Positions 3,001 to 61,598 of a DNA stretch of 64,000 nucleotides are shown piece by piece. The position numbers and the translations under genes are program-made. The notes below the pieces were generated by a model. The model made no database searches. It worked only from the letters and a program-made list of their open reading frames with translations, and was not told where the DNA came from. The stretch's first letter is position 1, and each line of letters starts with the position of its first letter. The stretch is from Mytilus edulis (Eukaryota), in assembly GCF_963676685.1 (NCBI RefSeq), contig NC_092347.1, positions 66,650,001-66,714,000 on the forward strand. Reading direction: 5' to 3'.

Positions 3001-6000
3001 TGTTATTTCAGAAGGTCACATTCATCTTTGTTATCAGTTTCTCTGTCTTTATCTTCATGATGATAATATATCAGTTTTCTACATACTAAGACATTATATC
3101 TCATTGCTGAAGGCCGTATGACGACCTATAGTTGGTAATTTCTGTGTCATTTGATCTCTTGTGGAGTGTTGTCTCATTGGCATTCATACCACATCTTCTA
3201 ATTTTTAATGAATATACTAATATATCTAGTTATGTCAATAACTGTTTCCTGGAAAATAATTTCTTGCTTTTATAAAGAGGAATATATAATTGAATTCAAT
3301 AAATGTCAATATAAATCTGCAGTGTTGGTTTTTAAAAAAGTAATTTTATTTTAGATACATATAAACTAGGATAATTCACATCGGTAAATCTTCAATAATT
3401 GATATTCATTTCAAAGATAGATCCAACTTATGCAATAGACTTGTTTCCTTCATAATTATAAAACATCTGCATTATTAGAAATCAGATTAACAGATTTGCC
3501 AAACTCCAAGACTCCGTTATGTAATAACTATATAATACATGAAAATGAAAATCGATACAATAAAAAGATGTTATATAATCTTAGTTACATAGACTTTATT
3601 TATTATATATAGATACTGTCATTCAGGGTAATGATTTTCAAGCGATGCTAATAAGGGGATACAGTTAAAAGGGTCGTGTCCCTCGAGTCGAATGAAATAC
3701 TAAGTAAAGAAAAATATATTCTCTATTTCGATCTTTATCATCAAAACGCAAAATGTATTAAACGTAACCCGAATAGTTTAGGCGTTATATTCCGCTTCGA
3801 TTGCTATGGATATAGGTATCAAGTTTTATATTTGGTAGTTCTCCCATAATTGTCTTTCTAGTGGATGCTGTGAAAGGTTAACTATTTAGTGGTCGTATAA
3901 GTTTTTTTACAATGTATTTCAAAATAAGTAAACCATGAACAAAAGAACGAGAGAAATTAGACTCATCTGCAGTTTTCTGGATGTTCACACGGCTCACAAA
4001 ACAGAATGCAGAAGAACATTTTCATGGGTCATTCATATTTTGTTAGAAATATATGTGTCGATAATATACGCAGATGAATGTATTTCACGTTTAAACTAAT
4101 GGTTTTTTTTTATAAATTCAATTTTATAGATAAAAGCATTGACCCGAAACTGAAAAACTCACAAGTACGAATTTTTATATAAAAATAAAGATGAATAAAT
4201 TTACTATCAATACCGAATTGTCCGATAAAGAAGTGTATAGATGCTAAGAGTTTCTAAAACTATTTACTAGGTATGAACTTATCACTGAAAGCAAACTTTT
4301 CCTCTTAAATAGACAAATATTTAATGGTATTTAATAGTAATAATGAGTCCTTCAGACAAAATAATGGTTTACCCCCAAATAATGTATTTGAAACAGGTGT
4401 AAGAGCTGTAATCAAGAATTACCATACATTGTCTTGAAATGTATACTAGTTTCGTTTTGTATATGAAAACATTTATTTACTGGCTGTTCAAGCAAGAGCA
4501 AGGTTATGGTTATTGTCCCCATTGACGCCTATTGTTTCCCTCGACAAAATATCTTCTTTATACAATGTAGAGGCAAATCCAGAGAACTACAATGTACATA
4601 GTGTTGCCCTAGAAAATGTTAACATCAGACAGAAACAGATTGATAACAATTGTTATTGTATTAGACGACAATCCTCGAGGTTAAAATGTTAAAAATCAAA
4701 AACAAGTCTGATGTTAAAATCAATTCAACAATGGCATTTTGAAATGATTATGTTCTATAGCAAGAAAATTCCTCAAGGAACACATCATCATTCAACGACA
4801 TTTAATTCATGCCTTTCCCTAAAGTCAAATAAAATATTTGTCAAACCAAAATATTCAATTACATAATTGCTTTGTTTTTTGCATTTGATAAATCTACAGG
4901 AAATAATTTCGGTTGTTATGGTGACAGATATGGAAACACTGTTGTTTTCACATGTACTTGTTTACAACACAATACTCTTTTAGAGTTATGTCAGGTCTAA
5001 TTGATGTCCGTTATATCCTTATCATCTCTATAAATACCATTTTTTTACTATTTTAGATGTGTTTGTTTCTATTCTAAACGTAATTTGATATACTTAAAGC
5101 CATGCTATTTTAGTTTTGACTACACAATATGTCTTTTATATAATTGGAGATACGGAACCAGGTGTTTTGTTCACTCCCTCTCGAATTTAAAAGTAGAATG
5201 ATAAATGTGAATCGAATTTGTTGACTTTGAATATTTATAATTGGTATTGCGTAAGTTGTATTCCCACCCCAACCGCAAAATTGCTTTGGGTTTATCAATT
5301 TATAAACTTGGTGCCAGTGCGTCACAAACTTAGTTTCCAGCATGACAAATGTGAAACAATTCAAGAGAGAACACAACGACCTGAGGCACCTTAAACAAAA
5401 AATACAAAGCAAATTTAGCAACATCAACAAACGCCAACCAGTGAACTAGAGGCAAATTAAGAATGGAGCGGGGTAAGACATACTTATGAACGCTCTATCC
5501 GCCCTGACCTATTAAAGCGCACAAAGTTAACCTATTTTACCAATTAATTCGTTGTTGTCAGTACAAAAATATGAGTTTGAAACCGTTTAAAAACTATGTG
5601 TAGGTTTAAGTATTTCACGTTTTAATTAAAATCTTTTGACTAAAATAAAATGTCATCCGTTTACTGTCATGTTGTTAAATTGTAGTTTAAACTGCCTGTA
5701 CTTAGTCGTTCACATTTAAAAAATAAAATATTTTAATGCCTTGTGTTTTTTTGTGTGGAAGTATCTCCTTAAAAGACATTTTTCATGCCAGATGTGCTAT
5801 CGGAATTCTTTGTTCATGCGTTTATTTGTATTGTATTCCTGTCACGTAATGTTGTCTTTTTAGCGGTATTTTGCCATATAAGCAGGAGATTTTGCTAGCC
5901 ATAAAACGAGGTTCAACCCAGCATGACAATGTCTAACAATGTCTTGTACCAAGTCACGATTAACAATTCACGATTCAAGATTTTTATTTTCTAATCATGG

Positions 6001-6720: not shown

Positions 6721-8440
6721 TTCTTAAAACATTTGAATTTTCTGATATTGGTACCAATTTAAAAAACATTGGTAACAACATCCAAAACGAAATAAGTTGT
6801 TAAGAACCACATTAAGAACCGCTTGTTGAGGAATTTGTACTGACAATTCACTTCGAATATATATTGTAGCGATACTGCCAGAAAAAGACTATGCAAGAGA
6901 ACAAAAGTATTACAAAAATACCACATCCTAAGTCAAATTCGTTAGGAAAAGACCACAAAAACTGCCAAAAACAAACGCTTTCAATCAACAAAACATGTGA
7001 AAAACAACTACAAGCCAATCTCATATGGATATAGGTACATGAGGACGAGAAGAAAATCACTATTTGTCACATAAGAATTTCGACTGTTTGTTTTCAAAAA
7101 TTATCAACGATCTTGAAAATGTCAAACTTCAAAGAACTTAAAATAAGAGTAGATTTTTGATTGATATATATAAAATGTTTCCCTTATTACAGCAAAGTGT
7201 GTGTTTCTACGTTGGGTTTAAGTCAGGAAACAACACAGGCATTCATATTTATACAATTACTGGATGATTGAATGTAAATATATTTTCTTCGACGACCCTA
7301 TAAGGAAAAAACAGCATCTTCCTGTAATCTTTGTGGTAAATCTAAACTTTTGATTACAATTGCTGATTGTTCTGAAGAAAAGAAAGGCATTCTTTTATGC
7401 TGAATCAATATAATCATGAACGATTAAGAGAGATGTGCCTACAGGAACTCGTTAAAGTTTCTGTCAAATTATATAGAAAATTATAATTAGAGCAATCTCG
7501 CATAATTATGAGGGACAAAACCTGATTTAAACATGCCTGGTATCTAGAATTAGATACCCTTTAATATGTAGATGATTTAAAGGCATGCCTAGATCTAGAT
7601 GGTTAATACTTTAGCAGATATAATTGACATTTTACCAACGTCACAGTTTTCTAAAATTAATGTTACAATGTTTACTTATTAAACTGGAAATAAACCAATA
7701 ACGAACTAAATAATCCGCACAGTCATGATGAATTTGTTAAGATAAAGTTAAAATGAAGACGAAGGACTCGAAAGAAACAAGTTCGGGTCGAATTACGAAC
7801 CAGAAAAGGGAGTCGTCTTCATTGAAATCAATATCATACTTTTCTCCCTTTTTGTACGTTTTCTTAATAACCTAACATGGGCCTTCGAATTACAGTTACT
7901 ATATAAAGGATATAACCTAGTAAATGTACTTAACGTCATAAGGCCTTCCGAAAACAATAAGTAAAACTCATACCTTATTGTAGGCTTTAAAAGTCTCAGG
8001 AATGACTAAATGGGAAAATGAATCAAAAGAGAAAACTAGTTACTTGATGCATGACAAAACTGATATAGCTGACATCAACAAAAGACAACCATTGAAACGC
8101 ATACTGAAACTTTGAAAAAAATAAGGTGCTGGAGTTAACATGTTTATGAAAATTTATACATTTCACGTAGAACATAACGCAACGTAAGAATAAACTGAGT
8201 TAAGGATAAAACTCATCAGATATACACAAAACACACAAAAATTTAACAAAAAAATACATAACTAGCAGTTACGAAAAGCTAGTGTAGACAAATTTCATTA
8301 ATTTATATTTAATAAATCGGAATTTTCAGAGAGGTAAACTTAAATCAATACATAAGGATAAAGTGTTAAGATGTCATGAAAAGTATGAGAAATACTTGAC
8401 CTTGAGCAATGCCAAAAGAGAAGTACCGATATGAATATAT

Positions 8441-8713
8441 ATAGTTATTAAAGGTACCAGGATTATAATTTAGTACGCCAGACGCGTGTTTCGTCTACAA
8501 AAGACTCATCAGTGACACTCAGATCAAAATAGTTATAAAAGATGAAGAACCAATAGTTACCATAATTGTAGCCATATATATTAAGTAGGATCTTTAACTT
8601 TGTACTTATTTGGCTCTCTAACTATTTTGATCTGAGCGTCACTGATGAACCATATGTAGACGAAACTCTCGTATGTCGTATCAAATCATAAGCCTGGTAC
8701 CTTTGATAACTAT
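8441..8713. repeat. Inverted pair of hammerhead-bearing repeats (arms ~8441-8535 and ~8619-8713)
   Basis: atagttattaaaggtaccagg... pairs with ...cctggtacctttgataactat; the right arm has a decayed HHR (ctgatgaacc...gacgaaac). Confidence 0.8.
8475..8518 (-). ncRNA. Type I hammerhead ribozyme (core intact)
   Basis: Reverse complement reads gtgtca-CTGATGA-gtct(tttgt)agac-GAAA-c(acgc)g-TC-tggcgt. Confidence 0.85.
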
Positions 8714-11700
8714 TATGAAACAAAATCAGTCATTCATGCATTCAAAAGTAGCGTGCCCTTTAACAGAATCACCTTAAAAATAGGAGTTGATGCCGATATC
8801 TAGGTTGTATAATATTTCAGCATGTACAGATATACTTCCAACAAATTTATTAAAATCTTTGCAAGAATTTAGTTTTAGTAATTAACGTAACGAAATCACA
8901 GAATGTTTAAACAATTCACCAGTTATATCAAGATTACTTCCATTTAAAAAAAAATCTAAAATATCCAAGGACAGAAAACAGTCGAAAGCCTGTCAATATA
9001 TATTTGTTCCGCCTAACAGAAGTTCTACTGGAAACTTTGTTATAAACAATGTCATCATACCTATTCCTATTGGAACATATATTCTATACTATTTATTCCG
9101 TTAGGAACATATACAGTAATATTTATTCCTATGGAAATAATATTCCAGAATATGTTTTCCTTTTGGAACTAATATTATTCAGCTGTCCCCTGCATGCATA
9201 TATACACTTAACTAAGTCATGTGTGTACGTTTTGTATAATAATTACGAATCGATAATGTTTTATCGATAAATAATAGTTCAGTCAGTGATTGTTGATCGC
9301 AGGCTTATAGTCTTTGGAGTGTGTTGCCGATGTTTATCGAACCGTAATATTGATAATACAGAAAGCATGGTGCACGTAACACATATAAAGTGAATTGATA
9401 AAGCATTGATGTTTTATTTTTACTTTGTCCATGCATTCCCATTTGTTAACTCAACTTTTCCTTAACAGGTGTGTAATGATTTGTTGTATTAAACTGTTTT
9501 AACGAGAGGTCTCGAAGTTAAGGTCACTGCATACGAGAGAATTTCGACGAATAAGTGTACAGGAAGACAATAATTAAATAACAGTACATTTAAGATTTTG
9601 ATAATATACAGGATTTTTTCACGTACAATTGTTTTATAGTGAAACTCCATTCAAGTATATAAAACATGCTAAACTTTTTTTTTAATTTGAAGTTGCATAT
9701 GACTTTAATTCAAATCATTTATATGGAATTCAATGCCAACCTATGCAAAAGTAAATATGACTGCAAAACTAAATCGAACATCATTTTATTCAATATCAAC
9801 CTGAACATCGAGTGTTTATTTCTCGTTTAATAACTGCTTAGAGCTTTACAGCAACCCTTTCAGTAGCACACATTATTCTCTTAATTTCTTGTCTCCTGTT
9901 GGTTTGTGTAGTTTAAGTGTCATTCCGACGACGAGTGACTAGATCGGATATGGCCTACATTTTTCTGCATTCATGACTTTTGGCTGTGACCAAGCTCTCT
10001 CTTGTTAACGATGAAGTCGACTTCGCGTTAGGTTTGTCCCCTCCGTAAAATATTCGGTATGCCTTCGGAATATCTTACTCGTTAAAAAACGGTCGGGTTT
10101 CAGTCTAACTTAAATGATAGCTTCCACTCGACTATTATTTATCGACATGGTATGTGGGGTGTGTAAATGTCTTAAATTGTCAGAAAACAACTCTGATGAA
10201 ACATTACCATATATCATGTGGGAGGAAATACAACTTTTGCATATATTATTGTTGTTTTGTTAAGATGTTCTGTAAAAGAAACACCAGAAAATGTATTAAA
10301 AAATGGATGTGGGTTAGAATCTCAAATGCCATTTAAGATAAAAACACAAAGGAAAATTTGTAGAAAAATGGAGATCCTTTGATCTTTGATGGATAGTTTT
10401 CCTGTCAGCAATCATTCTATTCCCCTGAAAAAGATAAATCTTTCAATGTAGCAGAATATGATAAACTATTTCATGATTACTGCAAGATTGCAGGTAATCT
10501 TCTTTTTCATAACAATTATTTATAATTTAATTATACATTATATTGCAAATATCGTTCATAGTAACCATTCACATGTAAGCGTTTGAAAACTCTTTACTCA
10601 AATAACTACTTCATGAACATATAGCAAAAACTTTATACACTAGAAGAAATTACAGTGAAATATTAAGACAATGACAAAATATTCTTTTGCCATTCAAAAC
10701 CATTCAGAAGATAACTGCTGAAAATCTCATGAATGAAAATATTGTTGATGGTTATCTTTGTGTTTTTTCTTTGCAAAAAATTCTCTGTCCTTGAAGGAAG
10801 AAGGGATAATAATATGTGGCAAAGAGTAATTACTTCCCTAATCAAATAAAAGACGTAGAAGTAGTTGATTGACATCTCTAATACTGTAAACACAAACTCA
10901 GCCATGCTGAAAACAACCACGTGTCAGAAATGAGTTAAGACAAATCAAACAAAGATCGAAATACGGATGATCATCAATCAAAATATTCGGAAAAAATGAA
11001 TCGGTGAATTGATTGTATTTACGGAAACTAAATCATTAAATAAAAGGGAAAGTGTGTCTCAAGAGAGAGGCAAAGTTCAGGCCAAATACTTAAAGCGAAC
11101 CAAGGACTCGGACTGGGAGATTGCACATAATATTTCTGAACTAATAGAAAATCGGCTTTCATGAATATTTTAATACGTTTGAATTAACAATGAGGATATT
11201 TAATAAATAAAAACTATATCAAAGGAGTATATCTTTAATAGATGTTCAAACTTTGATCTTGATTGAAAACGACAAGAGGAAATATGCTGATAACACTAAT
11301 TGGTAAGGTCTTTTTCAAAAATGACTACATTGCCAAAATTCTTTAAACCATTAGTAAATAGCAGATGTTCAATTTCAAAATGTCAGTTTACAGTATATAA
11401 ATGGCATTCCAAGAATATGAATTGAAAACCACAAGGGTTGTTGATTACACAATATTGGTACCATTTTTTTCAACAACAAAAAAATAAGTAAAGTAACAAG
11501 AGCACTAAACTCTAAGGAAAAATCAAAGTTAGTGGAATGTCCCTTATCAAATAGCAAAATCAACAGTTCAAACACACCAAACGGACCTAAAACTACTGTC
11601 ACAAATTTCTGACTATCTGTTTGAGAATTATGCTTCAACACTATGCGAGTAGAAGATAACATGTAAGGTATCCGCTTTTTCCCTTCTGAAGAAATATCGC

Positions 11701-12653: not shown

Positions 12654-13325
12654 GTGCGTCTGCCGTAAATATAAAATTTTCAATTATGAGGCTCCCACAG
12701 GGGTACCCCCCTCAGGTCGCAAGGTCGTTTTTAAATTCGTCGAGAGGTCGTTTCTAAGGGAAATGTACAGGTTGCAGGTAGTTTTTTCCCAACACAGAGG
12801 ACGGAAGTCGGTCGGAGGTCGTTTTTTCCAAATTTTACAGGTCGCAGGTCGTTTTTAGAAGGCCCTCAGGTCGGAAGTCACCTCTAAAAAGCCCAGAGGT
12901 CGCAGGTCGTTTTTTACCCTGCGGGAGCCTCAATTATGGTATCTATGATGAGTTTATTTACAACCACTGGGTCGATGCAACTCCTGGTGGAATTTGAATT
13001 CCCCGATGGTATCACCAGCCTAGTATTCAGCACTTATGTGTTGACTTGAGTTATCATTGATATGTTCATAATTATAAATTAAATATAAACACAACTTTGA
13101 ATTTATGAAATACTAAGGCCTTTCTACCTCAGGAATAGATAACCTTAGCTGTATTTGGCAAAACTTTTAGGAATTTTTTATCCTCAATGCTCTTAAACTT
13201 CGTACTTCATTTGGCTTTTTTAACATTTTTTGATTCCAGCGTCACTGATGAGTCTTTTGTAGAAGAAACGCACGTCTGGCGTAAATATAACATTTTAATC
13301 CTGGTATCTATGATGAGTTTATTTA
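12654..13325 (+). mobile_element. Retrozyme-like unit (~366 nt) interrupted by a MITE; hammerhead at 13239-13282
   Basis: HHR 3' half at 12654-12680, MITE 12689-12930, unit body 12939-13238, HHR with stem II closing-pair mismatch (agaa instead of agac). Confidence 0.8.
12689..12930. mobile_element. MITE, 242 bp, with 8-bp TSD and internal AGGTCG array
   Basis: TIR aggctcccacagggg / accctgcgggagcct; caattatg on both sides (12681-12688, 12931-12938); about a dozen (a)ggtcg motifs inside. Confidence 0.88.
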
Positions 13326-13904
13326 CTTCCATATGGTTAAAGTAGCATGCTACAAGTTATAAACCATAATTTCAAGGAGTTTGTGTGGTTCAAAATATAT
13401 CCTCTGGAATCAAAACATTGACCGAATTTAAGCATATTAATTGGTGCTTATGACTTGACCTTCAACTTAAATATTAAAATTGGTTGTCTAACCTCATGAG
13501 GTATTGGAACAAGATGCTGTTTATGACTCTTAAAGAAATTGTCAGGAAATGTGTGTGGCTGGAAGCTAAGAAGACATTCATCATATCATAAACTAAGATT
13601 CATTCAGTGCATAGTCTGTTTATTGCAGGTGATCTGTGCGACATACAGTTTTCGGCTCTATGGTCGGGTTTTTGTCGCTTTGACACATTCCCCATTTCCT
13701 TACTAAATTTTATGTTATATGTTTTCTTTTTCAAAATTTATCCATAATTTATCTTCCTACAACTTTTTAATTACACAACAACTGATAAAAACTAGACACA
13801 ATTTATGAATTTCGAACAGCGGTATACTACTGTTGCCTTTATTTATGGGCTCAATCTCCACTCTGAAGAAACATCATTATAACAAAGTCATAGAACTATC
13901 TTTG

Positions 13905-18982: not shown

Positions 18983-21900
18983 CTAAAAATAGATAAATTT
19001 GCATAAAATAAAAACATTTATTATCAGGGGCAGATCCAGCCTTTTTAAAAAGGGGGGGGGGGGGGGGGGGGGGGGGGTGTTCCTAGCCCAGGACAAAGGG
19101 GGAGATCCAACTTCAGGTCCCCATTCAAATGCATTGATCGGCCAAAAAAAAGAGGAGGTTCCAACCCCCGGAACCCCCCCCCTCTGGATCCGCGCCTGAT
19201 TATATACTTAAAAGTAATAATGCAAGTAAATTGTATGTGTAATACATTTGATTAGTGGGTGCCCCTGCATACCAATTTGAAGTAACTGTATTATACCAAA
19301 GTCAATGCAGGACTTTCTTTGAGATATTTTTGTGTCCAGGAGACACAATTGATGCCACTGTTCCTGTTATGCAAGTAAATACTAAACTAGAGGCTCTAAA
19401 GAGCCTGTGTCGCTCACCTTGGTCTATGTGCATATTAAACAAAGGACACAAATGGATTCATGACAAAATTGTATTTTGGTGATGGTGATGTGTTTGAAGT
19501 TCTTACTTTACTGAACATTCTTGCTTCTTACAATTATATCTATAATGAACTTTGCCCATTAGTAACAGAGAAAAATATTTGGTAAAAATTTACATAAATT
19601 TACCAAATTAATGAAAATTGTTAAAAATTGACTATAAAGGGCAATAACTCCTTAAGGGGTCAATTGACCATTTAGGTCATGTGGACTTATTTGTAGATCT
19701 TACTTTGATGAACATTATCGCTGTTTACAGTTTATTGCTATCTATAATAGTATTCAAGATAATAACCAAAAACAGCAAAATTTCTTTAAAAATTACCAAT
19801 TGGAGGGCAGCAACCCAACAACCGGATGTCCAATTCATTTGAATATTTCAGGGCAGATATATATTGACTTGATTAACAATTTAACTCCTTGTCAGATTTC
19901 CTCTAAATGATTTGGGTTTCAGAGTTATAAGCAAAAAACTACATTTTACCCCTGTTCTATTTTTAGCCGTGGTGGCCATCTTGGTTGGATGGCCAGGTCA
20001 TCGGACACATTTTTCAAACAAGGTACCTCAAAGATGATTGTGGCCAAGTTTGAATTAATTTGGCCCAGTAGTTTCAGAGGAGAAGATTTTTGTAAAAGAT
20101 AACTAAGATTTACGAAAAATGGTTAAAAATTGACTATAAAGGGCAATAACTCCTAAAGGGGTCAACTGACCATTTCGGTCATGTTGACTTATTTGTAAAT
20201 CTTACTTTGATGAACATTATTGCTGTTTACAGTTTATCTCTATCTATAATAATATTCAAGATAATAACCAAAAACCGCAAAATTTCCTCAAAATGACCAA
20301 TTCAGGGGCAGCAACCCAACAACGGGTTGACCGATTCATCTGAAAATTTCAGGGCAGATAGATCTTGACCTGATAAACATTTTTACTTCATGTCAGATTT
20401 CCTCTAAATGTTTTGGTTTTTGAGTTATCAGCCAAAAACTGCATTTTACCCCTATGTTCTATTTTTAGCTGTGGCGGCCATCTTGGTTGGTTGACCGGGT
20501 CACGCCACACATTTTTTAAACTAGATACCCCAAAGATGATTGTGGCCAACTTTGGATTAATTTGGCCCATTAGTTTCAGAGGAGAAGATTTTTGTAAAAG
20601 ATTACTTAGATTTACGAAAAATGGTTAAAAATTGACTATAAAGGGCAATAACTCCTTAAGGGGTCAACTGACCATTTCGGTCATGTTGACTTATTTGTAA
20701 ATCTAACTTTGCTGAACATTATTCCTGATTACAGTTTATCTCTATCTATAATAATATTCAAGATAATAAAAGTTAACGACGACGGACGCAAAGTGATGGG
20801 AAAAGCTCACTTGGCCCTTCGGGCCAGGTGAGCTAAAAAATGACAAAGTTCAGCAACTCCCAAAAAGGCAAATATTAATAAAAATCAAAGCTCTGACCAC
20901 ATGCACACCTTCAATATATGTACAAACAGGATTCAAACTGTAGGAGGAGTTGTGCCGAATAACTATATACCCATAATGGGGTGGAAGGAGAGAATGACAG
21001 GGGTAAAACAATATGCCCCCCCCCCCCCAACATTTAGTATAACCATAATGGGTTATCATTTACAATATGTCTCGTGAAAATTACTTAAGACTAACAGAGA
21101 TTTATATAGTTGTACTTGAGATACATGTATATAATAAAGTGTATATGATATAAATATATGAAGATTTTTTTAAGGTTTTCTTTTCACTAATACCAGTTAT
21201 TAAACCCTTTAACATTTTTTTTATCCCAGCTTCTCTGATGAGTCTATTGTAGAAAAACTGCGCCTGTGTACAAAACTAAATGCTTGGTATCTTTTATGAG
21301 GTTTTTTTTGCAATTCAAATATTTTTTCCGAAAGCTGCTTGAATAAGCACCAGACTATTAAGAAAAAATTCTTATGGTTGAAAACACAAATTTAACACAG
21401 TTTGTGTAACAAGTAACTGATGTGAAAGATGTATATAAAAAATGAAAAGAATCTCCCCAACAAGCTTTTTTCTTACAATATATAAAAGACAATGCTTAAT
21501 AAATATCATTCAACTCCTTCTTTTAAAAACAGAAAAAAATCTAATTCAGAATAAATGTTAAATTAGTTCAACTTAAAATATCTTTTAAGTTTATTCAATA
21601 AAATTTTCAGCTAAATTGTTGTTCAGAAATAAACGTACAACAGTATCATTCATTACAAAGGAACTAACTTGATTAAAAAATTACCCAAGTATATAGTAAG
21701 ACAGACTTGAAGACGATTTTAACCTAGTATGTAATGATAGCTTGTTCATTTCCTGAAGGAAGACAGGTTTTGTCATGGGGGATTCTCTCCAAAGAATAAA
21801 ATTTAATTTGTATTTGGCGAACAAATCCATTTCTGTCTGCGTAACATAAATCATCGAAGTGAAATATGATTATTCACTTTTCTCACACTTTCATTCTTCT

Positions 21901-39900: not shown

Positions 39901-42900
39901 AATGTTTGAATAAAAGAACAACTTATTCTAGAAAGGAAAACCCTGCCAATTTGAATGTGCCATATAGTCAGGCATCATGACAATTATTGTCTCATTAACG
40001 ATTGTTCAGGGCCCTTATGGGTTGTCAAGGTTGTTAAAAATCAATCATAATATTGTTTCTGCAAGTCTTTTTGTGGTTTTTTTTTCATTCAAGAATTTGC
40101 TGATGTAAAATTATTCCAAACTTACTTAAAGTTTGCACAATCAGAGCTGTTTTATTATTTTCATAGTCCCTACATTGACTTTTATAATTTCTTTCTTGTT
40201 TTACTGCTTAGCTAGGTTAGGGTTCTGTTGCTGTATCCCCATTTGTTAAGTGTATAAAAACAGTTTGTGCAATAAAAGAAAATGTTTTTATTCCAACTTC
40301 TTCAAAGTAAAACATGTTAAAATTGAAGTAAATTGACACTGGAAATCTGTTTTATCTGATTTCACGTCACGTTATTAACTATAAACATAGGAGTGTAACA
40401 AAAATCCCCAGTCCAAATTGGTTTGTTTAACACGGTTTATACAGTTTTTTTCTCTAATTTTTAAATTTATCACCATCTTAAGCTTGTTTGGTGCTTATCT
40501 TTACCTTTTCTTCATCCTTTTTGGTTATGTTTAGTATCACTAAATCTGAAATGAGACTCGTGAAGATATCATGTGCATGTGTGTAAGCAGACTATTTTTC
40601 AATTCATTCTAAATAAGTCATCACACTGCTTGCTTAAATCAGTGGCGGATCCAGGGGGTTCCAGGGGTTGGAACCCCCACTGCATTTGAATGGGGACATG
40701 TAGATGGAACCCACCTTTGTCCTGGGTTAGGAACCCCCCTTTTAAAAATGGCTGGATCCGCCGCTGGCTTATGTTGTTCTTTGTGCATTGCTAAGTATAG
40801 TGTAAATAAAAGTTTGTTTACAATACCTGGTCCAATAAAACTCTGGCTTTTCTTGGAATGATATAGAAATATATCTTTAGGTGTAGCTGGTCTGGCATTA
40901 GCAGGTATAAACTTCCTAATTGGACCTGAAGTACTTGGTGTTGGTCTACAAAAAAGGAATTATCAATAAAATGAATATCAATGTCTTGAATAATTCACCA
41001 ACAGACATATTTCTATAATAAGGGGTTATGTTTGTTTCGGAGTTCAAAATATTTTTATCAATGACTTCTTAATTATCTTATTTACCAATATTAAAATTTT
41101 TAATAAAAATGAAAGTACGTAAATTCTCAAACAGCTAAAGTGAAAATTGTCAATATCGAAATTGACCTTCTTTTAGTTATCAATATTCTAGTAGACAGTA
41201 TTTTGGTATAAACATTATTTATCTAAAATTAGAAAATACAATTGATTTAAACATGAAAATTATTTTAAAAATTAGCAGTAAAATGTATATGTTGTGCTTT
41301 TTTTTTGTTCCCATTTAGGTCTAGTCAGTAGTTATACATACCCCCTTAGCCTTGAAGGAGCTCTCACCAGTACAGTAGATTCCCTGGAAAGTAGTCCTAA
41401 ACCTAGTTTACTGCTAGCAGTACTTGGTACTTGAGAAACTGTGACAGGACGATCTACTACTTGATGGAATACATAAGGTCTGTCAGCCTCTAGGTGTAAA
41501 GATGACTGAGGATTCTCAGCTGTAAAGAATCAATAAATTATGACCAAAAACATTCTATGAATCAAAATAAAAGGAGATATGATAAGAGGTATATGTCAAT
41601 TAGACAGTTAAGCAAAAACAAAAACCAACTAAAGATAATCATGTTATTTGAGTTAAAAAAATGTATTCTGTGTTTGTATAACACATATTGAATTACAATT
41701 TTAATTTAATACTTTGTGAAAGGTTACTGATCTACAATGTAGTGTACAATAAAACAGGCTTAGTATACAACAATGCTAATTATATTTCTTTTTGTAATTT
41801 CTACACAAAGTAAGTAGCTTGCATTCGAGCGTCACTGATGAGTCTTTTGTAGACGAAACGAGTGTCTGGCGTATATACTAAATTTAGTCCTGGTACCTAT
41901 CATATGATGAGTTTATTTACAACAACTGGGTCGATGCCACTGCTTGTGGAGATTTATTTCCCCCAGGGTATCACAAGCCCAGTAGTCAGCATTTTTTGTG
42001 CTGACATGAATTGTCATTGATATGGTTATATTTATAAATTTACTGTTTACAAATTTTTGAATTATTTGAAATACTAAGGCTTTTCTACCTCAGGCATAGA
42101 TTACCTTAGATGTATTTGGCAAAACGTTTAGGACATTTGGTCCTCAAAGCTCTTCAAGTTCGTACTTTATTTGGCCTTTTTATTTTTTTTTATTAGAGCG
42201 TCACTGATGAGTCTTTTGTAGACCAAACGTGTGTCTGGCGTATACACTAAATTTAGTCCTCGTATCTATGATGAGTTTATTTCCTACAGCTTTCAATTTC
42301 ATGCAACTGATTTGAAGACATTTTCTGGGAAATTCTGATGCATATTATTAGCAATGTTGCCAAAAAACAATGAGCTTAACTTGGATGAGTTATTATCTGT
42401 CCCTCCCACTATATCATATGCCAGTACAGAATTCAAACTGGTAGTTTTCTATTTGGACAAGTTAAAATTTATTCGGGCAAATTGTTAAAATAAGTTCATG
42501 AAGAACTCTACAGTACAGAATTATTTCACACCTAACAATACCATAATGCTTGAAAATCCTACCCCTCACAATTATCACCACTTTCTCATATTGACAAAAA
42601 AGTATTTGTAAATATTATAACTCTCTAAGTGTTAAAAGATATTCATCATTTGTGTACTTTAGGGTTTCAATGTTTATAATGCTATTCATTACAGAATCTT
42701 TTTCAACTCTACTTCCGTGTTACACTTCTTCAGAATGCTACTTAACCATCTGGTTGCATATTTGGTATGTTATTAGGTTTTTTTCCCAATATTATGCAAT
42801 CTGTTTGCTCTGTTTTAGAAAGTTCATTCTAATATTTGATACTCTTCAAGTTCAACTTCTTACTTTAAATGGCCTTTTAACTTTTTTAAATCAAGCGTCA

Positions 42901-45900
42901 CTGATCAGTCTTTCGAAGACTAAAATCATGTATGTTGACAAAATTTAAAGCCAAGTTTTTTTGATGATTTTTTTTCTTTCTCCCATATTCTGTGTTTTAA
43001 TATAGCTTAAGATTTCTCATTTCTACATTTCTATTACATTTATTCACTTTCACTTTTGATACTATAACAACACATTTTACTTCATGCAATATAAGATGGG
43101 TGCAGATGGGGATCACTTTCACCACATATATGTATTTGTGTAGATCAATGGTACACAATGTAGAATACCGTTACAATTATCCAAAATAATTTGAGATATC
43201 ATATTGATTTACAACCAATATTTTCTATTTATATACATTTTACATTTGTCCTATATTTTCTGAATCTAGTACATTCATTTTTTTTTGACATTGTACAATT
43301 AACATAAACATCTGAAAATAGATATGTATTTGTATAGCAAACATGAAATCATCCTTTAGCAAATAACAAATAACCAAAATAAAAAAAAAAAAATTCTTCA
43401 TACTAAATCACTAATCATTGACTTTAAATACAACAATGTTTGATTATCCCATTTCTCAACAGCATAATCTAATTTTAACATCATCTAGTTCTATAAATTA
43501 AGATAGATAATCAATTATTGTCTTTCCTGACTATATCATCCTTCTCAGTTACTCTGTAATTCTTTTATAAAGGCTTTTAGACATGGGCCAAATTAATCAG
43601 TATAATGTCAGAATGTCTGAGATTTAATGTACAACGAGTGGAGATCTTTATAAAACTTAGTTTTTTAAGCATAAAACTTCCTGAAGCAGGAGAAAAAGAC
43701 CACAAGTAGAATGATTAACAGATTATCAGGGATGTTGTATGGCTGTTATATATGATATCGTTATGCAGAACACCCAAAAATCTACACAAAACAAAACACT
43801 TATAATTTAGAGATAATCAATATGCACTGTAACACTAGAACTACAATATGCAGTTTTTTTCGTAAGAAGCAGATCAAATTTGAACTTGCATTACATCTTA
43901 TTGTTAGCATTATCATTTTTAAGGTTATATTTACACAGTATTTTTCATCCAATTATCAAAGGTCAACACAGACAAAACCGATATCCAACAAGCAATGGAT
44001 TCATGGACAAGAATGAAAAACTATCTATAAACTAAATATTTAGCCATGCCAATTAAACATATCAAATGTTTAAATTTTATAAAAGTCAATAAAATATTAA
44101 CCTGTGATAATATTTATCATATTTGAGTTGTATGGCATGTTGATAGATTTGATGGCTTGCCTACTACCAAGGAGGTCGCTCCCAAGGGAATCTGGCAAGC
44201 GCCATCTGTTGGTGCCTCCAACTTGCTTCCTTACTCGACATCTTGGTGTAACTGCATGCTAAAATAATAAATACATATTATATAACACCAGTTATTTTGC
44301 TGTTCCAACAAAATAAAATATCTGTAATTTCATTTTGGTTTTCTTGAAAAATTTGATTACACATTAGTTGGAATTGGCTTTAATAACATTAACGGTCTAA
44401 TTTTTCTGCACCGGATGCGCATTTCGACAAACTAGCTTTCAGTAAATGCCAGTTCACTTAAGTACAATGTGTTTTTTTGTGTGCTTCGATTTTACAAATC
44501 TAGTGTATCTGATATTAGTGAAATCATGTATGTTGTGCTTTAACTCTACTGTGTCAGGTTAGGGTAGAGTTGAGGGCTGAACAACATCTTTAACACTTTA
44601 CACAGTGGCGGATCCAGGGGGGGGGGGGGGGGGGGGGGGGGTGTTGCAGGGGTTGGAAACCCCCCCCCCCCTTTTTTTTGGCTGATCAATGCATTTGAAT
44701 GGGAGCATATAGTTGGAACCCCCCCTTTACTCTGGGTTGGGAACCCCCCCTTTTTAAAATGGCTGGATCCGCCACTGATTACATTATTTATACATTGTAT
44801 GTACATGATGTACACATGATGTATGTGGTTGCAGTCTGCCATAATTGTATGAGCAAACAATTCTGCTGCTTGTTTTCTTTTTAAAATTGTTTCACATATT
44901 GATATGCTAGATCTTTTTCAGATTTTATAAGTAACATATCACAAAGATTTCAGTAACATTTTGATGTCACAACAGAAAATGTCTGAAGCCACAAAGGAAG
45001 AGTGATTGTTGTATAGCGTCAATAGTTCAAGTGTAACAAATTCTTAGGGTAAGTGCAGAAGATTCAAAATGGTGATAAGATCTATTGTTTCCTGTGGAAT
45101 GTATTTTTGTTATACATGTATTTATGTCATCCATTGGAACATTAAAGGTTTTAATAAGGCAAGATGTGACTTGTACTATAAAAATCAAATTACTTTAAAA
45201 ATGTAACAATTAATTTATTATTTAAAGCTAAAAATAACTTTAAAAGCATAAAATGACAAAATTGTATTCAGTCTTACAATCAAAATTACAACCTTCATTT
45301 TTAAAAGTATTTAATTTACTTGATCTTAATCTTGTTTACAATTAATTCAAACAACAAATTGAAAAATGTGGATTTCATACCTTATGTTTATTTACAGGCA
45401 TCATCATTGGAACAAATAAATTAATAGATATAGATGAACTAATTCATGAATGTACCAGTAGTATCTTAGGGATGAATAATCTCAACTAAAACACTGTTCA
45501 ATAAAATGGCTTAAATCATTATTAAAGTATTCAAACAAAATTCAATGAATCAAGAAATTAAAAAAAACATCAATGTATAAAATTTCATTGTTATGATGTA
45601 CCATTTAAGGAGTTCAATACTTTAATACTGTTTCATGATACTGCAATTTACTGCGTAGATAAAAGGTTTAAATAGATGTTTAAATGATCAGAAAATTTAA
45701 ATGGCGCTATTCAGCGGGTGTCTCAACTAATAGTCCTTTCAGTTTATCGATATGAATACAGATCATTTATAGACATAATAATGCATTGAACATATTTAAA
45801 TTGATAAAAATCAATCTTCAACTTATTGAGGTGTTTCAAAAGGCTATAAAATAAATAGCCTACTCTAGTTGATAACTTTAAATGCTCTTGTCTACGCTGG

Positions 45901-52946: not shown

Positions 52947-53880
52947 TATCAGCTAGACCACACTACAGCTGATGCTGTAAGCTTGCGTGCTACAAAATAG
53001 TCTTAATCGTCAATATAGAACTTGATCCGAACAAATGACCACGAATCAGTATCTTATTAACTGATTAGCATGCATCATTTTAAACTGCATTGAATTTAAC
53101 AAAATTGTGTCGTGAAATTTAAAGAAAAAGCGTGTGCGGATGGATATATTCTTTTCTGTCTGTGTAACTAGGGACTCAATAATCTAAAAATAGACTACCG
53201 GTGTAAACAAGAACACGTGGTAATGTTTTTTAAAAATTCTGTTTTAAATTCACCTTACATTGCTTTTAATTAATTATTATTTTTTATGTCAATAATTTAT
53301 TTGAAAGAGATTGTATATCATCCATAATTATAAGTTTTCACCATTATTTTTTTAACTTGAATAGACTGGACCTGATCAAGGATTTGTATATTGACAAATG
53401 TGTTCAATAAAAAGGCTGTTAATTTTAGACACAAGACGCGTATTTCGTCTACAAAAGACACCTCAGTGAAACTCTAAAGGCTAGATAAAGTTTGTACGAA
53501 GTTGAAAAGCATTGCTGAAGACAAATTACTGAAAAGGTTTAATCTTCCTAGTATTATGGTAGATTTTTAAATGTCTGCTAAGTTTTTATCTTTTGATATC
53601 ATTTTTTCAATTGTAATCGTTACAGCATTTATTGGTTATTTCAAATGACATAGCGTTTATTGGCTATCGTTATATAATACATCGAGGGTAATACGTAGTC
53701 AAGTTAGCCAAGTTGTTGAATTAAGTTGTCACTTTAACTAGTGTAAGCGGAGCCAGAAAAAAAACTGGGCCAAAACTTCTTTTCTAATTTTAACATTAAA
53801 TGCAAAATAACTTAAATTATTAAACCGTTAAAATTTACAATAGTTAGGCCTCTAAATAGCCTACGATTGCCCGGGGCGTT

Positions 53881-53980
53881 NNNNNNNNNNNNNNNNNNNN
53901 NNNNNNNNNNNNNNNNNNNNNNNNNNNNNNNNNNNNNNNNNNNNNNNNNNNNNNNNNNNNNNNNNNNNNNNNNNNNNNNN
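53881..53980. other. Assembly gap (100 N)
   Basis: Run of N; true length unknown. Confidence 1.
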
Positions 53981-61000: not shown

Positions 61001-61598
61001 AAAGATATCAGTTTTATAATTTTATACAACATACGGAATGCATTTTTCTTCTATACCTCTAGCTGTCACTAACTAGTGATGCTTAAAACATCTTCTAACA
61101 GTTGGATATGAACTGCATGGAAGAGCATTGAAAACCAAATACATCACAAAGTTGGGTCAATAATGTCATCTTTGTAAGAGCGTTTCGAATAATTCAACGT
61201 TTTGATACACCGTAAATTTACAGAAAATGGTTCAAACACCAGAGTACCACACTAATGTAAAAAAAAATATCATCCAGTCGTACCATTGACCTTTTGGTTG
61301 TAAAAACTAACTAGGGAAATATTAAAAAGCTTATTCATTTGGTAGATATAGGAAGATGTGATGTGAGTGCCAATGAGACAACTCTCCATCAAAATAACAA
61401 TTTTAAATTGTAAACCATTATAGGTCAATGTACGGCCTTCAACACGGAGCCATGGCTCACACCGAATGCGTATTTCATCTGCATAAGACTCGTGCATCAG
61501 TGGCTGTCGCATCAAACAGTTCGAGGGTCAAATTAATTACGATGTTGAAGAGCATACGTTTGAATGATATATGCCATAGCAGCATATTTGCATTATTT

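Follow-up and report, generated by a model that had tools for sequence, protein, structure and literature searches.

A decayed retrozyme copy in a mussel intron and a stem-loop shared with Naiad retroelements as a candidate start signal for copying

The hammerhead-bearing insertion described here is read, with a probability of about 0.75, as a decayed, antisense, intronic copy of a mussel retrozyme whose family is copied by a Naiad reverse transcriptase, which would bind a stem-loop shared by the two elements and start just 5' of it. The insertion lies in the window, a 64,000-nt stretch of Mytilus edulis DNA (contig NC_092347.1, positions 66,650,001 to 66,714,000), in which all plain coordinates below are given. 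Judged from its sequence, the element is a member of a known Mytilus retrozyme family, class and family both being known already, and the copy itself is ordinary, one of thousands; the anatomy of the family matters more. It bears on an open question, the identity and the recognition target of the enzyme that copies animal retrozyme circles into DNA. If the broader form of this reading, given below, is true, a helper enzyme and a cis signal can be named for an animal retrozyme, and the circle gains a mechanistic purpose. At the family level, the link between retrozymes and Naiads is well supported by sequence comparison.

The intronic copy and its family

The location in a BTBD16 intron given in the earlier note was confirmed, with Mytilus BTBD16-like proteins mapping exon by exon to the minus strand, and a contig of run X1, presumed to be RNA, is spliced from 41519 to 44102 with CT..AC ends. 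An assembly gap of 100 N (53881-53980) lies about 900 nt upstream of the BTBD16-like start codon. The insertion is 460 bp long, or about 1.25 units, and is antisense to the gene, so that the host pre-mRNA carries no ribozyme; the hammerhead core string is absent from the gene's strand. Homology to the family unit sets in at about 41819-41823 and reaches its limit at 42282. The features are as follows.

41520..44101, minus strand: host intron, the third of the BTBD16-like coding region, whose coding exons run from 52946 to 18917
41823..42282, plus strand: whole insertion, composed of 44 nt of a unit truncated at its 5' end, a unit of 369 nt and a tail of 47 nt
41829..41872, plus strand: type I hammerhead 1 with an intact core, predicted to cut after C41866, its stem III loop having lost the palindrome
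41873..41918, plus strand: tail segment after the cut, with a 5-nt private insertion, ending in the U-rich stretch where family copies stop
41922..41986, plus strand: stem-loop in common with the Naiad 5' end, predicted binding and start signal of the reverse transcriptase
41987..42197, plus strand: AU-rich non-coding rest of the unit, with 69% similarity to decayed sequence in the Naiad B 3' UTR
42198..42241, plus strand: type I hammerhead 2, G12 changed to C at 42224, predicted cut site C42235, predicted inactive
42242..42282, plus strand: second tail, 42282 being the fixed 3' end of the family and the probable start of reverse transcription

Two type I hammerheads in direct repeat, with no open reading frame between them, had been recognised from the letters alone, and both observations hold: the predicted cut sites C41866 and C42235 are 369 nt apart, and the longest ATG-started frames in the element have only 38 and 34 codons. 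The unit has a GC content of 0.35, under the 45-50% limit that characterises metazoan retrozymes, and the element, which contains no GIY-YIG or reverse transcriptase frame, is not itself a Naiad. Hammerhead 1 keeps every core base and both stem III pairs, in agreement with the intact core described before. Hammerhead 2 has indeed lost G12, a conserved catalytic base of the hammerhead, and reads CAAA instead of GAAA at a position where 15 of 17 family units have G. The further claim that this copy should cut once is better put as at most once, since stem III of hammerhead 1 is weakened and plus-strand transcription is required. The stem III loop reads GAGU in hammerhead 1 and most commonly the palindrome GCGC in the family, and the energy of the stem III self-duplex for a dimeric hammerhead drops accordingly from -13.3 kcal/mol (family) to -1.4 kcal/mol (hammerhead 1).

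In a 4-kb scan with Rfam Hammerhead_1, hammerhead 1 scored 24.5 bits (E 0.0093), below the gathering score of 34, and hammerhead 2 was not listed; in a scan of the whole window neither hammerhead was listed. Energy folding returned the hammerhead fold neither for the window copy nor for a typical family copy, and is uninformative on activity because it misses the hammerhead even in the latter. Compared with 17 family units, the window unit carries 18 substitutions and the 5-nt insertion, several of them in functional positions, and the core of its stem-loop has two private substitutions (41945 and 41964). With the second ribozyme broken, the first weakened and the hairpin core mutated, the window copy is predicted to be dead and unable to release a monomer.

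Genome-wide, the hammerhead core pattern had 20,031 matches, as against 0 for the reversed control, and a search with the element returned 7944 candidates, 40 of which were scored to give 95 matches, the full-length ones being mostly 90-93% identical. The hammerheads are therefore not chance occurrences. The 17 family units measure 364-367 nt and are 95.5% identical to one another, and the window unit averages 93.3% identity to them. Tandem arrays of up to at least eight units occur in the genome, and dispersed copies sit in unrelated flanks. Letters compared by eye with the published 375-nt retrozyme of Mytilus galloprovincialis place the window unit in the same family, and about 5000 such hammerheads in 350-390-bp repeats are reported from that species (PMC7229834), bearing out the earlier statement that the class is known from mussels.

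Units of one array differ from each other by 12.9 mismatches (15 pairs) and units of different arrays by 20.0 (105 pairs), which fits one template per insertion and also later duplication. Target-site duplications, which exceed 4 bp in metazoan retrozymes when they occur, were not found above background in 16 copies, the longest word shared by the flanks averaging 5.7 nt as against 5.2 nt in mismatched pairs. One reverse-strand array (L184:1211-4141; G000:C10) alternates units of 365 and 367 nt, and a stem III pair is broken in three of its four even-numbered units. This is what a dimer circle with one dead ribozyme would give, but a second array has a three-unit repeat without the dead-ribozyme pattern, so duplication explains both arrays too.

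The window holds further retrozyme copies or fragments at 12937-13326 (+), 8438-8539 (-) and 8591-8714 (+), and more fragments at 1773-2080, 21197-21253, 42851-42924, 53435-53477 and 61473-61555. The copies at 13326 and 8438 end at the end point common to the family, and the pair at 8438-8714 consists of two copies back to back in opposite directions. Fragments of the 3' ends of Naiad families B and A are also present (391-521, 735-821 and 13801-13842).

The 3' end of retrozyme copies and the stem-loop shared with Naiads

Retrozyme copies have ragged 5' ends and a common 3' end about 45-49 nt past the cut site, directly before a stem-loop of about 65 nt. Of 23 non-redundant best-scoring arrays, 21 have their 3' end at this common point, and L004 and L028 do not. 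A second sample of 30 hammerheads was taken in chromosome order and is free of score selection, although L044 and L048 look like duplicates. Eight of these hammerheads run into a further unit and 22 are terminal; 18 of the terminal copies end between -5 and +4 nt of the stem start, an interval in which a uniform spread over the unit would by our estimate place about one copy, and the others end at -57, -21, -9 and +118. The window copy ends at 42282, an offset of about -3 from the stem. The four terminal copies and two arrays that end elsewhere tell against the proposed reading. A fixed end beyond the ribozyme cut would imply that the template was a circle or an uncut multimer, not a linear cleaved monomer. 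The proposal that this locus is a retrotransposed, more than unit-length copy of a circular RNA is likewise supported, the copy being longer than one unit and 5'-truncated, as from a reverse-transcribed circle or multimer.

The helper was sought by a GIY-YIG search of the genome, which returned many Penelope-like frames. Penelope-like families with a C-terminal endonuclease were rejected as partners: five families had no retrozyme link in their own ends, and their pseudo-LTRs contain no retrozyme hammerhead or tail, with only separate retrozyme fragments nearby. At one locus with an N-terminal endonuclease, a retrozyme-like segment, namely that after the fixed end, lies just before the start codon. 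This locus (family A) matches the published Naiad_Mgal, and a search with the N-terminal 270 residues of A led to families B and C, in which unbroken frames of about 1000 codons are numerous. All three families have an N-terminal GIY-YIG, the motifs CxC, GxKF/Y and DKA (DKG in other families) and a C-terminal reverse transcriptase; the Pfam GIY-YIG match of family C is weak (E 0.036), but over the whole protein C shares 56-64% identity with A and B. Each family shows a pseudo-LTR or partial tandems, and the CUGANGA string is absent from the 3' UTR in one copy each of A, B and C. The pseudo-LTR ends fall within -5 to +1 of the stem at 19 of 19 measurable loci across the three families (19 of 20 loci being measurable, with L153, which has no 5' end, left out). 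The cis element that retrozyme and Naiad share is placed alike in both with respect to the 3' end. The suggestion of a Penelope-like helper is supported at the level of sequence, and can be narrowed from Penelope-like elements in general to Naiads.

The window segment 41916-41985 is 78.6% identical to Naiad C over 70 nt (score 63; maximum 35 in 100 shuffles), and typical units reach 81% in retrozyme family 1 and 86% over 71 nt in family 2. Against Naiad A, which has an inserted hairpin, the window unit scored no better than shuffles, a result that counts against the proposed reading. Folding of the segment yields a long, irregular stem-loop, with z -3.2 for the window and -3.4 for Naiad C. Covariation was counted in eight sequences (six retrozymes, Naiad B and Naiad C), Naiad A being left out because its inserted hairpin misplaced it in the multiple alignment. 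In this set 96% of cells are paired, as against 37-49% in slid controls, and both partners have changed in 7 of 25 pairs. On four of the five measures the observed value is reached by 0-1 of 500 shuffles, and on the fifth by 144 of 500; these figures are not probabilities, since the structure was predicted from the very sequences used, which are related. That relatedness and the one measure not above shuffles also count against the proposed reading.

The hairpin core motif has 10,014 matches in the genome (control 0); the first 30 comprise two Naiad C elements and otherwise retrozyme-type repeats, and among 42 GIY-YIG loci only the two Naiad loci carry it. At least 11 Naiad consensus sequences in the PMC8557442 supplement also begin with the motif or have it close to their start (CGi, Sglo, Olur, Tgra, Mcor, Mgal, Bpla, 1_Skow, 1_Pfla, 2_Pfla and Cmel), with a partial motif in three more (Amil, Aacu and Anas); that paper names 36 hosts. 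The 5' stem-loop is visible in these supplement sequences, though the accessible text of the paper does not mention it. An Rfam scan of the hairpin region of Naiad C gave no match near a gathering score, and Naiads across phyla would thus start with an RNA structure that has no Rfam entry. In a comparison of three retrozyme families with one unit per family, identity is 87-92% in the hairpin, 69-81% in the middle, 73-91% in the hammerhead and 55-75% in the tail.

The third of these families (L164:1482-1833) has a 351-nt unit with the same hairpin, and its copy ends at the same point; its hammerhead has swapped (covaried) stem II pairs and a different stem III palindrome. In six of six Naiad B copies (L134:4997-5209; L135-L138, L153) the 3' UTR contains some 200 nt of decayed sequence that resembles the retrozyme, including a ruined hammerhead, and in three copies this sequence is partly doubled, indicating that sequence has passed between retrozyme and Naiad. 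A Naiad A copy (L103, reverse strand, ~5384-5412) has 29 nt of the tail of retrozyme family 2 in its 3' UTR. By eye, all three retrozyme families and Naiad C (L140) have a short UGGUA motif some 20-25 nt upstream of their 3' ends, and the motif is mutated in the second tail of the window copy (42259-42266).

Candidate copying mechanism and alternatives

In the proposed mechanism, the Naiad protein would bind the stem-loop of the retrozyme RNA, nick AT-rich DNA and prime on the U-rich stretch 5' of the hairpin, and the reverse transcriptase would then run on round the RNA circle or along a multimer. As the hairpin lies behind the start point, it would be copied only if the enzyme continues in this way, which would account for the ribozyme, retained by the parasite and missing from Naiads. 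Copying round a circle or along a multimer would also explain 5'-truncated insertion arrays of more than one unit. A broader proposition, to which we give somewhat better than even odds, is that the 5' stem-loop, conserved in Naiads of animals as far apart as bivalves and hemichordates, serves their telomerase-related reverse transcriptase as the signal for binding and starting, and that mussel retrozymes are minimal parasites consisting of this signal and a hammerhead, in which the ribozyme-made circle lets the parasite copy its own signal. The family anatomy would also give a reason for the tandems and circles in which Penelope-like elements and their parasites are found. The intact frames of Naiad C, a hairpin of only 65 nt and a start point placed within a few bases make the proposal simple to test in vitro.

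The RNA reads leave room for more than one template. The coverage given by 1319 reads of run X24 is almost wholly confined to the element, and these reads come mostly from other copies, as only 23 of them are at least 99% alike. The flanks of the element have no depth, but neither do the exons, which makes the reads uninformative on this copy. There are 31 reads that go back 370 nt, which a circle and a tandem array or transcript would both give, and no pile-up of X24 reads was seen at the cut site; this ambiguity and the missing pile-up weigh against the proposed reading. At 42282, 78 RNA reads leave the element into mixed flanks. Small-RNA run X22 contains reads of about 30 nt, with adapters on both sides, at 41824-41853 (+) and ~42080-42111 (-), of which the sense read starts with U on the hammerhead (20 begin, 12 end); these reads are piRNA-like and probably derive from the family at large.

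The main rival, to which we assign a low probability, holds that the hairpin, as a promoter or processing site, marks an RNA start or cut and that the Naiad enzyme copies linear, unit-length RNA from a free 3' end with template jumps, circles being a by-product. It is consistent with published Naiad consensus sequences, which begin at the hairpin, and with an array directly before a Naiad C frame (L185:7200-9250; G000:C12), in which 24 hairpin repeats follow one another at 23 identical 83-nt intervals. The array is 5'-truncated and each unit extends from a point about 4 nt ahead of the stem as far as the start codon, as would be seen after run-off and re-priming at a 5' end; it suggests a real RNA 5' end before the hairpin, to the disadvantage of the proposed reading. 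However, this is a single locus, which could reflect repeated re-priming, a tiny circle or an assembly artefact. The rival is further opposed by the full-length circles that are the main form in mussel tissue (PMC7229834), and by the lizard protein that starts internally whatever the 3' end (PMC11167929), although that in vitro precedent comes from another clade (Poseidon), which limits the support that it gives to the proposed reading. X24 reads showed no pile-up of starts or ends at the hairpin, which is weak evidence because the library is fragmented.

Considerably less probable is that the hairpin is an ancestral remnant, the retrozyme having arisen from Naiad sequence plus a hammerhead and now being moved by a Penelope-like element with a C-terminal endonuclease or by a LINE. 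The genome does contain several intact non-Naiad Penelope-like families, and the decayed retrozyme-like sequence in every Naiad B 3' UTR examined would suit such an origin. A remnant, however, agrees poorly with a hairpin that ranks first or nearly first in conservation among the parts of the unit when the three retrozyme families are compared, that is absent from other Penelope-like loci and from which the ends of retrozymes and Naiads have the same offset. Very improbable, finally, is duplication at the DNA level as a satellite, or retention of this copy for a regulatory role in cleaving or splicing BTBD16 transcripts. Higher-order repeats of two and three units, a possible product of unequal crossing-over, do occur in some arrays, and a splice acceptor of the host gene is about 300 nt away from the copy. 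Against this, copies are dispersed in unrelated flanks with ragged 5' and fixed 3' ends, the ribozymes lie opposite the gene strand, which has no core string, and the copy has been altered at functional positions by its substitutions and insertion.

Relation to known systems

In the literature covered, which was mainly open-access, no paper was found that links Naiads, the hairpin and retrozymes. The retrozyme of M. galloprovincialis (PMC7229834; PMC4918200 Additional file 11) resembles the element in its type I hammerhead, 350-390-bp tandem unit, low GC and lack of a coding frame, and differs in that the window copy is decayed. Mussel retrozymes self-cleave at about 0.1 per min and yield abundant circular RNAs, tandem transcripts giving circles of about 350-390 nt, and Penelope-like elements are regarded as strong candidates for their mobilisation (PMC7229834). 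No specific helper element, fixed 3' end or shared hairpin is named in the accessible parts of the published mussel accounts (PMC7229834; PMC4918200), and according to a review no conserved motif of metazoan retrozymes points to a helper (PMC7761336).

Naiads (PMC8557442) share with the mussel retrozymes the stem-loop of about 65 nt, a 3' end just before it, 5' truncation and partial tandems. They are described as having no canonical hammerheads (PMC8557442), and encode an endonuclease-reverse transcriptase of about 1000 aa, whereas the retrozyme has a hammerhead and no protein. The precedent for the proposed internal start is the Poseidon element PAc of the lizard Anolis. This element, whose protein binds and needs RNA 3' of the start and initiates internally, is similar in that its internal start lies downstream of a hammerhead cut site and its genomic ends fall on start sites (PMC11167929). 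In contrast to the retrozyme, PAc is autonomous, has a C-terminal endonuclease and a start inside the coding frame, and was tested in vitro; its hammerhead cleavage is dispensable for insertion (PMC11167929). In Xenopus, retrozymes are likewise non-autonomous partners of Penelope-like elements and are linked to Penelope-like pseudo-LTRs by sequence similarity, in a preprint whose accessible text includes no mussel or other bivalve (10.64898/2026.07.22.740005). The similarity there lies in the pseudo-LTRs of annotated frog elements (10.64898/2026.07.22.740005), whereas the mussel partner has no hammerhead, and the piece that it shares with the retrozyme lies just outside the pseudo-LTR, downstream of the putative start of reverse transcription.
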